A DNA stretch of 5,835 nt from a virus (IMGVR_UViG_3300012275_000045), one strand, 5' to 3'; positions 2,024 through 5,835 are shown, counted from the stretch's first letter. The notes: generated by a model from the letters alone, not told the origin. Made by a program: numbers and translations.

Positions 2024-2052
2024 AGGAAAAAACAAAACCCGCCGAAGCGGGT
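2024..2052 (-). terminator. Rho-independent terminator (minus-strand transcription), tR2-like position upstream of the nin genes
   Basis: Minus-strand RNA reads ACCCGC-UUCG-GCGGGU followed by UUUUGUUUUUUCC: a perfect 6-bp GC-rich stem, UUCG tetraloop and U-tract. It lies about 200 nt downstream of the lipoprotein gene and just upstream of the YbcO-like gene. Confidence 0.75.
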
Positions 2053-2250
2053 ATGCTAAAACAAACTGAAAGTAATATACCGGACTTGTAAAGGAACGAT
2101 AGAATAATTATTGGATTAAACCCTGACTCAATCCAGATTTCATAGGCAACAACTACGGACTAATCATCACAGTCATGTTTGATAGACTTAGTCCACATTG
2201 GGTGAGGGTTTACGGCGTTTTCACTAATAATTTATCGTCCAAGCTATACA

Positions 2251-2643
2251 CTACTGCCCTGTTTTAACGAAGTTTTTAAAGGAAACAACTGCCTGATAGG
2301 GGTTTGGTTGACAGCCAAACATATTATCGCAAAAAGGCTTGATGAAAATTCTTGAGGATCCATCTTCATTTGGCATTTTACTCACTTGATAAGCGAGGAA
2401 TGGACTATTTGGAGAGGGATTATAAGTGGAAATTAGCGTGTCTGTCGCCGTTTGAATTTTCCATGAGGAATTATTAGCCAACCAGAATTGCGCTCGTTTC
2501 CAATAAAAGTCACATTGCTTTTCATCATTACATGTTAGTGGCTTCATTGCTTCTGCTTTCAACGCTGGATCGACCTTTGCTGCACACCCTCCCAACATTA
2601 CTGTTGCAATCATTACACCTGCGACTAAAACAAGTTTCTTCAT
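2251..2643 (-). CDS. Putative Cys-rich lipoprotein (prophage moron), function unknown
   Basis: 130-aa ORF. N-terminus MKKLVLVAGVMIATVMLGGC has a typical signal peptide with lipobox-like LGGC (Cys20). The mature part has four further Cys (CNDEKQC and CDNMFGC). The gene is visibly AT-rich relative to the flanking nin genes and sits between two terminator-like elements that share a 12-mer. A GGGAG lies immediately upstream of the ATG with unusually short spacing. Confidence 0.7.
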   Translation of the reverse strand: MKKLVLVAGVMIATVMLGGCAAKVDPALKAEAMKPLTCNDEKQCDFYWKRAQFWLANNSSWKIQTATDTLISTYNPSPNSPFLAYQVSKMPNEDGSSRIFIKPFCDNMFGCQPNPYQAVVSFKNFVKTGQ

Positions 2644-2694
2644 CTCCCTGCCCCATCAATAAAAGTTCGGTTCTCTAATAACTAGAGTTAATCA

Positions 2695-2717
2695 ACGGAA
2701 AAAACGCCGAAGCGGGT
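2695..2717 (-). terminator. Degenerate terminator-like element at the 3' end of the hok transcript
   Basis: Minus-strand RNA reads AACCCGC-UUCG-GCG-UUUUUU. It shares the 12-mer gccgaagcgggt (plus strand 2706-2717) with the terminator at 2041-2052, but the stem is only 3 bp. It lies about 70 nt downstream of the hok stop. Confidence 0.35.
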
Positions 2718-2786
2718 TAAGTGCGGGTGCGTTGAGGATGCCTGACACATCAGAGGTGGCGAGGGATTTCTCCCCCGCCAGGTCTC

Positions 2787-2942
2787 TTACTCCTCAGGTT
2801 CGTAAGCTGTGAAGACAGCGACCTCCGTCTGGCCGGTTCGGATTCGTACCTCGCAGAGGTCTTTCCTCGTTACCAGTGCCGTCACAATGACGGTTAAACA
2901 GATGACGATCAGGGCGATTAACATCGCCTTTTGCTGCTTCAT
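2787..2942 (-). CDS. hokD: Hok/Gef-family type I toxin (HokD/RelF-like), 51 aa
   Basis: Translation MKQQKAMLIALIVICLTVIVTALVTRKDLCEVRIRTGQTEVAVFTAYEPEE: single TM helix plus the conserved RKxLCEV..R.G..EVAAF/VF motif of Hok/Gef, and it matches my recollection of E. coli HokD/RelF. AAGGAG lies 9 nt upstream of ATG 2942..2940. There is no relB/relE upstream, unlike the K-12 relBEF operon. Confidence 0.9.
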   Translation of the reverse strand: MKQQKAMLIALIVICLTVIVTALVTRKDLCEVRIRTGQTEVAVFTAYEPEE

Positions 2943-2999
2943 AGCCTGCTTCTCCTTGCCTTTCGGCACGTAAGAGGCTAACCTAGATTTGCCGTTCAT
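2787..2999 (-). CDS. mok: Mok-like in-frame N-terminally extended reading frame (modulator of hok translation), 70 codons
   Basis: In-frame upstream ATG at 2999..2997 with GAGG 7 nt upstream. The extension MNGKSRLASYVPKGKEKQA resembles the basic K/E-rich extension of chromosomal Mok proteins as I recall them (e.g. MokC ...RKVKEKRAMKQHK). Mok/hok overlap is the standard architecture of hok/sok loci. Confidence 0.5.
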   Translation of the reverse strand: MNGKSRLASYVPKGKEKQAMKQQKAMLIALIVICLTVIVTALVTRKDLCEVRIRTGQTEVAVFTAYEPEE

Positions 3000-3153
3000 A
3001 GATTGAGCCTCAGATTAATGTTAAGCGTCTTGCAGGACGCGTAATGTTAACTGGGGCTTTTCTCTATCTGCCTTTGGTGTTCATGCCTGAGACAGATAGC
3101 CTCAAGCACCCGCAGCCATTCTACTTAACTCCCGTTACCTCGCCAATATGAAA

Positions 3154-3243
3154 TCAGTCAGAAAGGCGATCCATAAGAACAACAGCAAGGCAATAAATTG
3201 CCATTACAGCAGCAATAGCCAGCGCACATTTGAGAACCAGCAC
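3154..3243 (-). CDS. Candidate small hydrophobic membrane peptide (29 codons), possible type I toxin-like or leader peptide
   Basis: Perfect AGGAGG (3254..3249), 5-nt spacer, GTG start at 3243..3241, TGA stop at 3156..3154. Hand translation: (M)LVLKCALAIAAVMAIYCLAVVLMDRLSD, about 23 hydrophobic residues then an acidic/polar tail. Not in the ORF track because it is below the length cutoff. No homolog recognised. Confidence 0.3.
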   Translation of the reverse strand: MLVLKCALAIAAVMAIYCLAVVLMDRLSD

Positions 3244-3736
3244 CACAACCTCCTGTATTGGACGTACATCAGTCCTGATAAATATGAGGCTGTCTCGTCA
3301 GTGATTCAATACAACTATTGGGTATAGTTTCTGTGATTTTGTTCTGTAGAAATGGAACACAATAACCAGTCACCACCAGCACTTCTTTAAATACGCCAAG
3401 TCCGACGCAAGCTAACCTTCTAGCCCACTTTGAGCGAGAAGCAGACATTTACTTAACTGGATAGCAAGAGACTTCATATATCATGGTTGATCCCGGAGTT
3501 TTCAATAATGGAAAGACATTGCCCGTATGATCGGGCCGTAACCACATTAGAAGCAGGTGCCCTTTGTGAATTTTGATTGTGTCAACCTATCTGTTTTGAA
3601 TTTTTTATAAAAAATATTCGCAAATTTGTGAATTATGAGAGACAAACGAGCATGGACAACCAATGTTACTTTCATACACAATGAAGCAACATGATAAAAG
3701 TACACTGACTTTAGCAAGTAAATTTAGGAGATTGCG

Positions 3737-5071
3737 ATGTTTAGCTTAATCATGGCCGGAGAACCGGACGTTTTTGACCGCTGGCCGTGTATGGACCCAG
3801 GGCTTACAGAAGGCGAGGAAAGATTCTCGATGTCCCGCATGCTGGAAGGCACCCCAAGCGATATTTACAGTAAATTAACACCAATAAGACCCGATACCTT
3901 AAGAGAACTCGCCAAGCTACCAGTATTGTTCATGACCGAAACTTATACAAAAGATGATGAATATGATACAAACAAGTACATCAGGATCAGACTTGGGGAA
4001 ATAAGAAATTTACGTAAAGATGGTGGCGATATTTTATTTTCTTTCAAGATTAATCATAATTTTGGAGAAATAACGAATCCCCAAACGACATTATATAAAG
4101 AAACCCTAGGGCTAGGATCTTTCGGGTTAAGCCGTACACATTGGGCAGTAAAAAATAAGGATTTAAATATTGTTCTGGAATCACTTGGTTTAAACAAACA
4201 AAATAGTCACCTCAAAGGTACAATCAAATTAAAAAAACAAACATACCCAGTAGTCGAGAATATTATAGATTATCTTAATTTCATAAAGAAAAACTTTCGT
4301 GATGGTCTCATTACCTTTTATCGTGGACACTCTAAAAGCTCATATGAGCTTGTCCCCTCTCTTTACAGAAAAAATCAAAACGGGACGTACAGGCATCTTG
4401 CTTCAGAATCTGATTTAGTACGTGAAATACTCAGCGCAAGACCAAATGAATTTAAGGAGGATAAATTTACGATTGATAAACTTGTCCGCATGCAGCATTA
4501 TGGCTTGCCTACAAGACTCTTAGACATTACATCTAACCCACTGATAGCATTATATTTTGCTTGCTGTTCGAACCCCAATGAAAACGGACAGGTGATTTCG
4601 TTTTCAACAAATAGAAAGAAAATTAAATATTTCGACTCAGATACAGTGAGCTGTATAGCAAACTTATCTCTTTTATCTTACGAAGAGTTGGAAAAATTGT
4701 CCTCCTCTGATTCCAGAAAAGGTAATATGGAGTTATCTGAACTCACTGATAAACTTGCAGACCTTATACAGAATGAAAAATCATATTTTAGAAACAGAAT
4801 AATTCCTGATGACTTAAGGAAAGTTGTTTTCCTTAAGGCTAAAATAAATAATGAACGCATACAATCTCAGGCAGGAGCTTTTCTTCTGTTCGGACTTGAT
4901 CCCATTTTACCGGAAACAGATGCTGAGTTTCCTCTTAACAGAGTGGAGATAGCGAACAAAAATAAAATTCTGGAAGAGCTGGCGCAGCTTAATATATCCG
5001 AAAGCACTGTATATCCCAGCATGGAGAAAACGGCAGCAGAAATTAAAAAAAAGTTTTTATCGGTATCATAA
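3737..5071 (+). CDS. FRG-domain protein (444 aa) with an uncharacterised ~190-aa N-terminal region; candidate anti-phage / abortive-infection effector
   Basis: Long ORF in very AT-rich DNA, where random ORFs this long are improbable. TAGGAG (3725-3730) lies 6 nt upstream of ATG 3737; an alternative start is ATG 3830, preceded by GAGGAA. Residues 194-197 FYRG followed by ...YELVPSLYR..., and residues 253-275 QHYGLPTRLLDITSNPLIALYFA, match the FRG domain signature (Pfam FRG, PF08867) as I remember it. C-terminal part is charged and coiled-coil-like (EELEKLSSSD...LADLIQNEK). Only gene on the plus strand in the window, with non-coding DNA on both sides. Confidence 0.85.
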   Translation: MFSLIMAGEPDVFDRWPCMDPGLTEGEERFSMSRMLEGTPSDIYSKLTPIRPDTLRELAKLPVLFMTETYTKDDEYDTNKYIRIRLGEIRNLRKDGGDILFSFKINHNFGEITNPQTTLYKETLGLGSFGLSRTHWAVKNKDLNIVLESLGLNKQNSHLKGTIKLKKQTYPVVENIIDYLNFIKKNFRDGLITFYRGHSKSSYELVPSLYRKNQNGTYRHLASESDLVREILSARPNEFKEDKFTIDKLVRMQHYGLPTRLLDITSNPLIALYFACCSNPNENGQVISFSTNRKKIKYFDSDTVSCIANLSLLSYEELEKLSSSDSRKGNMELSELTDKLADLIQNEKSYFRNRIIPDDLRKVVFLKAKINNERIQSQAGAFLLFGLDPILPETDAEFPLNRVEIANKNKILEELAQLNISESTVYPSMEKTAAEIKKKFLSVS

Positions 5072-5098
5072 AGGGATAAACTAAAGGCAACGAAAACT

Positions 5099-5114
5099 AA
5101 GACTGCGCAGTCTT
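5099..5114 (-). terminator. Palindromic hairpin, weak candidate terminator for minus-strand transcription between the convergent 5310..5732 and FRG genes
   Basis: aagactgcgcagtctt is a perfect 16-nt palindrome (6-bp AT-rich stem, GCGC loop). On the minus strand it is followed by AGUUUUCGUUGCCUUUAGUUU (U-rich); on the plus strand no U-tract follows. The stem is weak, so confidence is low. Confidence 0.3.
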
Positions 5115-5309
5115 CAGATGGAAGTGCTCATTGGGAACGGTTTCAGGGGCAAAAACTGGAAGTTCCAGTGGGCCTTGAGCTGCTCCCTATAAATTAACAT
5201 ATCTCAATGTTATCAATGTCTGCTTTTGGCACAAAGCGGACAACCACGCTAGCTCTACCCTGTGCCACAAAATGTCAATTTACATCTGAACTAATGCACT
5301 TTAATCTCG

Positions 5310-5732
5310 TCACTTCAAAAAATACCGAACATCCCCCTGATAAAACGACAATATCCGCTGCATAACTTCGCTTTTACGACACTCAGTACAAATTATATTA
5401 TGACGCCTGTCGTAACGACGTATTTCTCCATCAGGTAATGACCAGATAAGGTCCGGATCAACCGCAGATGGTTTCTTCAGCTTTGCCCTTGAGAGCTTTT
5501 TACGGGCATTTTGCCAGTCCTTACGCGCCTGTTCAGACGGGAATAACCCGTAACCAGAGTTGTATACATCGCCGCTGGCAACCAGCTCTCTTGCGAGAAC
5601 GCTCATCAGATATCTTGTCGCACCTGTCTTGACTTCCAGTTGCCGTAACGTCTCACGCCCACTCTGGCGTACGAGTTCAACAACCTGCCCTTTAATTTTT
5701 TCTCGCTCTTCTTGTGTAAAAACTTTTGCCAC
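5310..5732 (-). CDS. Hypothetical prophage protein, 140 aa, basic C-terminal half
   Basis: ORF-track ORF. Start is GTG at 5732..5730 with a perfect AGGAGG 4 nt upstream (taattttcAGGAGGactt-GTG). Protein MAKVFTQEEREKIKGQVVELVRQSGRETLRQLEVKTGATRYLMSVLARELVASGDVY... then a lysine/arginine-rich region (ARKKLSRAKLKKPS) and a single CTEC motif. No family recognised. Confidence 0.65.
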   Translation of the reverse strand: MAKVFTQEEREKIKGQVVELVRQSGRETLRQLEVKTGATRYLMSVLARELVASGDVYNSGYGLFPSEQARKDWQNARKKLSRAKLKKPSAVDPDLIWSLPDGEIRRYDRRHNIICTECRKSEVMQRILSFYQGDVRYFLK

Positions 5733-5835
5733 AAGTCCTCCTGAAAATTACCTCATGACCAGAAATCAACACTTACCCCCTGAAGCCCGGTGGAATTTCG
5801 GTATCTGGTTCAGAAATGTGATTCACGCAACGCTG

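Follow-up and report, generated by a model that had tools for sequence, protein, structure and literature searches.

The window considered here is a 5,835-nucleotide stretch of DNA from the viral sequence IMGVR_UViG_3300012275_000045, which belongs to a Qin/Tritos-type lambdoid prophage of Escherichia. Its plus strand is antisense to the phage early-right operon. The gene order is Q-rusA-ydfU(DUF968)-92-aa gene, a lipoprotein gene, hok/sok with a conserved open reading frame (ORF) of 29 amino acids, a gene for an FRG-domain protein, and a DUF977 gene. The closest relatives are in E. coli XDL and ten other complete genomes, with 97.3% identity across the whole window. Among sequenced phages the nearest is Tritos, from E. 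coli LF82, which has the segment from hok through DUF977 in common at 96% identity and diverges beside hok. We propose that positions 2053-5214 very probably constitute a two-slot region in which accessory genes are exchanged around the conserved hok/sok and 29-aa ORF, with autonomous cassettes, and with FRG being most likely a defence gene.

The window was compared by blastn with 15 annotated loci and with 80 IMG/VR loci, the latter being selected by a DUF977 protein at least 91% identical to that of the window, after which the anchors were placed in each. Prevalence was determined in 5426 complete E. coli genomes. Homology to the annotated loci stops at recurring positions, with the downstream flank extending to position 2052, and the breakpoints recur at identical nucleotides across loci. 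They define two variable intervals. Slot A (2053-2698, minus strand), whose breakpoints were placed by blastn against loci with rem, Rosmer or nothing in this position, contains the lipoprotein cassette; it was delimited in 58 IMG/VR loci and falls into 9 clusters, an empty 100-bp junction being the commonest. Slot B (3450-5214, plus strand) contains the FRG cassette with its AT-rich upstream region, and was delimited in 74 IMG/VR loci, which form 25 sequence clusters of 0.8-6.7 kb. Between the slots is a conserved core, in which hok/sok (2699-3149) is joined by an extension of 300 bp (3150-3449). Across the 95 loci the flanks have 80-100% identity, the downstream flank being kept at 80-99% in all of those compared. 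The DUF977 flank is found at 5996 places in 4009 of the complete genomes, and the whole arrangement (at least 80% of the window) in 12. Because the flanks are conserved and very common while the content between them is highly variable, the data strongly support the reading of this region as a hotspot.

The initial annotation had suggested a variable hotspot between conserved flanks, to be checked by alignment across related lambdoid prophages. That alignment maps the flanks and catalogues the alternative cargo, and the number of types (25 for slot B in 74 loci, 9 for slot A in 58) bears the suggestion out; gene content is clearly not invariant in related prophages. The features that had been named (DUF977, FRG, mini-ORF, hok/mok, lipoprotein and terminator) were all recovered at or near the expected positions, and the mixed orientation holds, FRG being on the plus strand and antisense to the early-right operon. 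Other points need revision. Three or four independent cassettes had been envisaged: swappable units do exist, but there are only two slots, arranged around a conserved core. A low GC content applies to the FRG cassette (37%) and the lipoprotein cassette (39%) but not to hok/sok (52%), the left and right flanks having 53% and 46%. Finally, there is a conserved flank where a nin operon had been named, but its content is the 92aa-ydfU-rusA-Q block.

The alternative cargo is diverse. Slot A holds the lipoprotein in this window, A20, EC416 and vB_EcoS-689R5, and rem in H10, ARS-C101, K-12 and HannyBb, and is empty in phage Evi. In LF82/Tritos it encodes an ImmA/IrrE-helix-turn-helix (HTH) protein and a 204-aa protein, identified by PADLOC as Rosmer RmrA (E 5.5e-102) and RmrT. 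Slot B amounts to some 230 bp in A20. It encodes a 269-aa protein in EC416, GNAT and HTH-cupin proteins in Evi, and QueH together with a fragment of a methyltransferase in HannyBb. In 689R5 it has a dozen small genes of the ea type, in MB06171 a DUF262/GmrSD_N protein, in FDAARGOS_1302 a pair of 333-aa and 320-aa proteins, in ECC-1470 a 340-aa protein, and in K-12 Qin relBE-ydfV-flxA.

Cluster representatives were typed by PADLOC and Pfam scans. The cargo identified in this way includes a CBASS CD-NTase (4.6e-144), PD-T7-1 (7e-157), NsnA (3.5e-123) together with NsnB and NsnC, a Tmn-like protein of 1210 aa (6e-67), AbiH (1.6e-27), Lit (1.3e-18) and a CARF-ADA protein (1e-35). An Argonaute-associated restriction-endonuclease-like domain, PDC-S07 and DUF262/GmrSD_N are also found. 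Altogether at least 12 slot-B types and one slot-A type match PADLOC models or defence-linked Pfam domains, this being a raw count. The region is therefore an accessory-gene hotspot rich in immunity genes, and is not exclusively a defence island. Several recurrent slot-B proteins have no Pfam or PADLOC match, namely those represented by loci L038 (269 aa, 9 loci), L021 (463 aa), L050 (834 aa), L072 (447 aa) and L047 (340 and 333 aa), and these may have functions that have not yet been described, in a slot rich in defence genes. Slot B of loci L041 (11008-12384) and L015 (4427-5389) encodes RES-domain or HEPN/RES-NTD1 proteins. RES is a sister clade to FRG among the NADases of the ADP-ribosyltransferase (ART) superfamily, so that two predicted ART-type effectors would compete for slot B.

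The slot-B cargo of the window is the FRG gene (3737-5071, plus strand), which encodes a protein of 444 residues. The gene is preceded by an AGGAG Shine-Dalgarno sequence and a promoter-like site at 3653-3682 (plus strand), and its transcription, which runs counter to the phage early operon, would start in an AT-rich promoter region belonging to the gene itself. The Pfam FRG domain matches residues 193-282 with 79.9 bits against a cut-off of 25, the PADLOC PDC-S15 models (PDLC04936) match residues 166-440 (E 2.7e-99), and phrog_4962 matches over the full length. The gene is present in 41 of the 5426 genomes and its ORF is intact in all 41. There are more than 4000 homologues, of which the top 120 keep the full architecture down to 41% identity. 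The FRG domain has been placed in the ART superfamily, as a predicted NADase-type antiviral effector (Aravind group, PMC9503650). An alignment of 52 homologues has 70 invariant columns, including the motifs Y/F-R196-G-H198, QHxGxPTRLLD-x-T265-x-N267-P and Q378-x-G-x-F. The invariant R196-G197-H198, T265/N267 and Q378 fit an aromatic-R / S-T-x / Q pattern.

AlphaFold2 models the protein as two domains (predicted local distance difference test score, pLDDT, 85.4), a PUA-like domain at approximately residues 1-165 and an FRG/ART-like domain at approximately residues 166-444. A Foldseek search of the complete model against the PDB gave no match below E 0.001. When residues 1-165 were modelled alone (pLDDT 87.1), the structural relatives were PH1033 (EVE; score 6.8), the YTH domain of Mmi1 (6.7), THYN1 bound to DNA containing 5-methylcytosine (6.5) and VcaM4I (6.2), with YTHDC1/2, ASCH, the McrB N-domain (5.0) and PD-T4-3 (4.1) as further relatives. 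The N-terminal domain is thus predicted to have the fold of a PUA-like β-barrel. Its sequence profiles gave no Pfam match below E 0.01 and no PDB sequence match. Because the profiles match nothing, we regard it as an unannotated fold relative of the modified-base readers, and not as a member of the EVE, YTH or ASCH families. Seventeen residues are invariant over 22 homologues, including a RTHWAVK motif. The invariant W136, R133, H135 and K139, with the near-invariant W16, F30, F65 and F103, are candidates for lining a modified-base pocket.

FRG has no conserved partner. Its neighbours are different in the lambdoid slot, in an island beside pao, in the P2 portal/gpA locus and in the P2 tail locus. 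A full-length homologue with 45% identity is found in the P2 portal/gpA (old/tin) hotspot, where it adjoins a reverse transcriptase, and another with 51% identity in the P2 tail-side (Z/fun-type) hotspot of Klebsiella; a full-length homologue is also present in peduovirus P22H1. A 94%-identical copy of the gene is found in 11 genomes, and in the one examined, E. coli 2452, the intact cassette is outside the lambdoid context (locus L011, 7537-9634). There it sits beside the pao operon and an AAA ATPase and HNH endonuclease pair, near a DGQHR-domain gene. These surroundings are a decayed e14/P2-like remnant and look like a small defence island.

This genomic context supports an immune role, and we consider it somewhat probable that FRG is a single-gene abortive-infection defence. 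From the fold and the context we tentatively suggest a possible mechanism, in which modified or foreign nucleic acid would be recognised by the PUA-like (EVE/YTH-type) domain at the N-terminus, which would thereby license the C-terminal FRG domain, of the ART superfamily, to consume NAD+ or to ADP-ribosylate a target. It is possible, if doubtful, that the protein represents a new type of single-chain modification-sensing abortive-infection enzyme, in which recognition of modified phage DNA or RNA by the PUA-like reader would activate the FRG domain. If so, FRG would work on the principle of type IV restriction, an NAD-consuming effector taking the place of the nuclease.

Several observations weigh against an immune reading of the locus and of FRG in particular. 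Some of the cargo is clearly non-defensive, including QueH, an IS110 transposase, and a BCCT transporter of the betaine/choline type that is accompanied by a DUF2254 membrane protein. No invariant catalytic Glu, as in the R-S-E or H-Y-E triads of ART enzymes, could be placed in the alignment of 52 homologues. The copy of FRG in Tritos is not among the morons of LF82, which speaks against strong constitutive expression (PMC9928086), and a survey preprint concluded that hok loci overall are not enriched near defence systems (10.1101/2025.08.07.668861). A literature search gave no experimental study of this locus, PDC-S15 or any FRG protein.

Some of the same facts would fit an alternative in which FRG serves the phage, either as an ADP-ribosyltransferase for host takeover or counter-defence (like T4 Alt/ModA/ModB) or as an NAD-linked anti-defence enzyme, the slot being a moron site of a general kind, not linked to immunity in particular. 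Phages do employ ART-superfamily enzymes in host takeover (PMC9503650), FRG is not detectably a moron in LF82 lysogens (PMC9928086), and the BCCT transporter and QueH share slot B. Against this, the gene is antisense to the early-right operon, so that lytic read-through would oppose it; it is also found in a chromosomal island beside the AAA ATPase and HNH pair and the DGQHR protein; its family is present in two P2 loci known for defence genes (PMC9122126, PMC9519451); and it matches a defence-candidate model that was derived from defence-island enrichment. A function for the benefit of the phage is therefore improbable, and we continue to favour defence as the more likely role of FRG.

The initial annotation had further proposed that the cassettes may act together for host protection or prophage maintenance. 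Among the 58 IMG/VR loci with both slots resolved there are 36 distinct combinations of slot A and slot B, and of the 22 types of slot B, 10 occur beside at least two different types of slot A. FRG-type slot B is accompanied in IMG/VR by an empty slot A, by the lipoprotein or by an 83-aa rem-type gene, and in complete genomes by the lipoprotein (11-12 genomes), by rem (at least 13) or by Rosmer (LF82). Joint action is not supported, because the cassettes assort independently. It is true that the four units are adjacent, that three of the four (hok, FRG and the lipoprotein) belong to classes linked to exclusion or defence, and that the identical arrangement recurs in 12 genomes of different sources, as would be expected of a single cooperating module selected as a combination. 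However, FRG occurs with each of these slot-A contents and also away from hok altogether, its homologues sit alone in the P2 hotspots, and the lipoprotein is present in 255 genomes whereas FRG is present in only 41. Selection for one such module is very unlikely. FRG, hok/sok and the lipoprotein were, to judge from these distributions, acquired independently, each cassette being autonomous and not part of one system.

It is still less credible that the variable content reflects the decay of a cryptic prophage accumulating functionless insertions and deletions: the replication genes beside the site have been lost from K-12 Qin, which is a defective relative, and IS110 and insertion sequence fragments are present in some variants, but the same architecture is found in plaque-forming or induced phages (Tritos, Evi, HannyBb and the vB_Eco isolates), the FRG ORF is intact in 41 of 41 genomes, the 70 invariant columns of the family persist over 52 homologues down to 42% identity, and the breakpoints repeat at the same nucleotides.

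A terminator hairpin, directly repeated over 19 nt, marks both ends of slot A; its copies are at 2034-2052 and 2699-2717 and are 89% identical. The first copy is an intrinsic terminator on the minus strand, found by a terminator scan, with the hairpin ACCCGCTTCGGCGGGT at 2037-2052 followed by a T-run; in the hok-proximal copy the stem is truncated. A 13-mer of the repeat, ACCCGCTTCGGCG, occurs twice, against 0.00 occurrences expected. In phage Evi, where slot A is empty, the two copies coincide.

Slot B is bounded differently. A repeat search identified a 40-nt imperfect inverted repeat with its left arm at 3410-3449 and its right arm at 5215-5254, and slot B occupies exactly the 'loop' between them. 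Complementarity is 75% between the arms as a whole and perfect over their inner 11 nt (AAGCAGACATT and AATGTCTGCTT). Both arms are present in every related locus irrespective of the cargo, with their outer halves nearly unchanged. We propose that cargo would be exchanged by recombination at short conserved palindromic junctions and in the flanks, and that such junctions, formerly or still terminator-like, may serve as the endpoints. The 40-nt inverted repeat could be the actual exchange site, or possibly an RNA-processing site that allows cargo to be swapped without disturbing the expression of Q. The inner 14 nt differ between cargos without compensation, the complementarity being 8.44/14 within the same locus and 8.31/14 across loci (p = 0.37). 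Because the inner arms do not co-vary within loci, neither a selected or required hairpin nor terminal repeats specific to each cassette can be claimed.

Five loci have composite cargos in slot B (L071 6607, L031 10301, L067 12162, L072 8044 and L069 11430). These have a common first module of BCCT and DUF2254, then an internal copy of the upstream arm with 3 mismatches in 17, and then second modules that differ. This indicates that cargos have apparently been stacked by recombination at the arm sequences.

Arm-like sequences are also found in more distant places. Only the inner ~19 nt of each arm remain around the FRG cassette in E. coli 2452, with a diverged arm after the cassette (L011, around 7490-7525). 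The distant FRG homologue of a Klebsiella P2-like prophage has the arm-like sequence TTGGCACAGAGTGGACAAGC approximately 100 nt upstream (L100 5897), with 3 mismatches in 17, where chance would give ~0.03 such matches in that locus. In K-12 Qin there is an arm-like sequence with 2 mismatches inside ydfV (L007 5979), its orientation being opposite to that in the window. The reversed arm may reflect an inversion or rearrangement of the ydfV-flxA segment.

The other cargo of the window, the lipoprotein of slot A (2251-2643, minus strand), has 130 residues and matches phrog_16082 (E 2.6e-84). It has a signal peptide and an LGG|C lipobox, which together read MKKLVLVAGVMIATVMLGG|C, and C20 is invariant in 13 homologues. 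Four further Cys residues are conserved besides that of the lipobox. The family is small, with 16 clusters, and is confined to Enterobacterales; the cassette is present in 255 of the 5426 genomes. No family match was found in Pfam, PADLOC or NCBIfam. A relationship to the Cor-type superinfection exclusion lipoproteins was considered and rejected: phrog_1119 matches with E 0.007 over residues 1-44, which is the signal peptide only, and there is no homology beyond this. The lipoprotein is an envelope moron, and exclusion at the cell surface would be a guess as to its function.

The hok/sok core (2699-3149) is on the minus strand and starts with the truncated terminator copy. The hok gene (2787-2942) encodes 51 residues, matches Pfam HOK_GEF (E 3e-23) and is called hokD in RefSeq. 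It is overlapped by the 70-aa reading frame of mok (2787-2999). The hok mRNA leader, with the region complementary to Sok, is at 2937-3111 (Rfam RF01794 over the full model length, with 110 bits where the gathering score is 59). A promoter scan placed a promoter-like site at 3146-3118. Sub-threshold Rfam matches to sR55 and ceN48 are due to chance. The locus is a toxin-antitoxin system of type I, whose likeliest role is to stabilise the prophage or to kill cells upon a collapse of host transcription. In a lysogen of LF82 carrying Tritos, the 96%-identical prophage, HokD was transcribed 3792-fold above the prophage background, and the Rosmer pair of slot A 14- and 30-fold; Tritos forms plaques (PMC9928086). 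On the basis of this transcription, at least hok and slot A behave as morons.

The 300-bp conserved extension upstream of hok (3150-3449, minus strand), whose last 40 nt are the left arm of the inverted repeat, contains the 29-aa hydrophobic ORF, MLVLKCALAIAAVMAIYCLAVVLMDRLSD (3154-3243, minus strand). This has a GTG start at 3243, a stop at 3154-3156 and an AGGAGG Shine-Dalgarno sequence. The extension with the mini-ORF is present in 1716 of the 5426 genomes and has no annotated feature. Twelve aligned variants of 88-99% identity have no frameshifts or stops, with 7 synonymous and 8 conservative changes, and the Shine-Dalgarno sequence is kept, although the first of the two GTGs is missing in some. 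The ORF is unannotated in RefSeq, a few records naming the peptide 'membrane protein' or 'hypothetical'. It is situated just upstream of the hok promoter and travels with hok, and is thus not an independent cassette; the peptide is possibly a second small membrane toxin. Two 59-aa ORFs in this region (3148-3327, plus strand, and 3269-3448, minus strand) were discarded, since the start codon is absent in most variants, there are indels of 1 bp and 14 bp, and the stop is read through. The RNA structure of the 300-nt extension is no more stable than that of shuffled sequence (z = -0.86).

The closest known parallels are the defence hotspots of P2 and P4 prophages (Rousset et al. 2022, PMC9122126; Vassallo et al. 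2022, PMC9519451), in which conserved phage genes likewise surround a short, variable and defence-rich interval, and which in P2 have the FRG family itself among their cargo, as here. The present site is a well-delimited further example of a prophage cargo hotspot, which is a known kind of feature. It differs in being in a Qin/Tritos lambdoid prophage, with two slots split by a hok/sok core, and in its junctions, namely a duplicated terminator for slot A and a split inverted repeat of 40 nt for slot B. No paper was found that names this lambdoid site as a defence hotspot.

Within K-12, the rem-hokD-relEB-ydfV-flxA segment of the cryptic prophage Qin lies at this position too, upstream of ydfU and Q; it shares hokD with the window and has rem in slot A. 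Unlike the window, it has lost the hok leader/sok region, the extension with the 29-aa ORF, DUF977 and the replication genes, and it has relBE, ydfV and flxA where the window has FRG.

The hok/sok core resembles hokW-sokW of Stx2 phage Sp5, reportedly the subject of work by Takada in 2021, and hok/sok of plasmid R1, in its Hok peptide, overlapping mok, leader/Sok-target RNA and lambdoid early-region position. In contrast to these, the locus in the window is the fixed centre of a variable region, and its function here is a predicted one. As for the effector, PDC-S15 and Pfam FRG (PF08867) have been placed with the RES toxins in the ART superfamily, and the subfamily in the window adds a conserved N-terminal domain of 165 residues that is outside both models. 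The combination of an N-terminal PUA-like β-barrel and an effector, in a context of phage defence, is shared with type IV restriction enzymes that have PUA-like readers (McrB N-domain, VcaM4I, PD-T4-3, and EVE/YTH/ASCH fusions); the FRG effector, however, is ART-like and not a nuclease, and the modified-base pocket is here only a candidate.

New anti-phage systems are at present found most productively in prophage hotspots, the well-mapped examples of which belong to P2/P4 elements. What is notable here is the prevalence of the site, its two-slot architecture around hok/sok, its palindromic junctions, and an FRG candidate with a newly recognised reader-like domain. Approximately three quarters of the complete E. 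coli genomes have the site, often more than once, and its junctions are precise to the nucleotide, which makes it a ready-made site for mining. It already shows at least 12 known or candidate systems, as well as many unannotated cargo proteins (269, 341, 463, 447 and 834 aa, and the 333- and 320-aa pair). For PDC-S15 the analysis offers a concrete architecture, in which a predicted PUA-like reader is joined to an ART-like FRG domain, and it also brings to notice the very common unannotated ORF for a 29-aa membrane peptide beside hok.

It remains to describe the flanks, both on the minus strand. The upstream flank (5255-5835) includes the DUF977 gene (5310-5732), which encodes 140 residues (Pfam DUF977, E 4e-29; phrog_142) and is elsewhere annotated as LygF or 'Ren-like'; in full-length relatives it is preceded by replication genes. 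The downstream flank (1-2035) was annotated from the RefSeq record of the 97%-identical locus of E. coli XDL. It consists of the 5' part of Q, which runs off the window, rusA (340-615; Pfam RusA, partly masked by Ns), ydfU (616-1674; DUF968/HNH, Pfam DUF968) and the 92-aa hypothetical gene (1676-1954; phrog_1212). A run of 10 Ns at 346-355 stands for approximately 157 bp, comprising the 3' part of rusA and the start of Q, when compared with the 97%-identical genome, and a second run of 10 Ns at 1315-1324, inside ydfU, is length-neutral.

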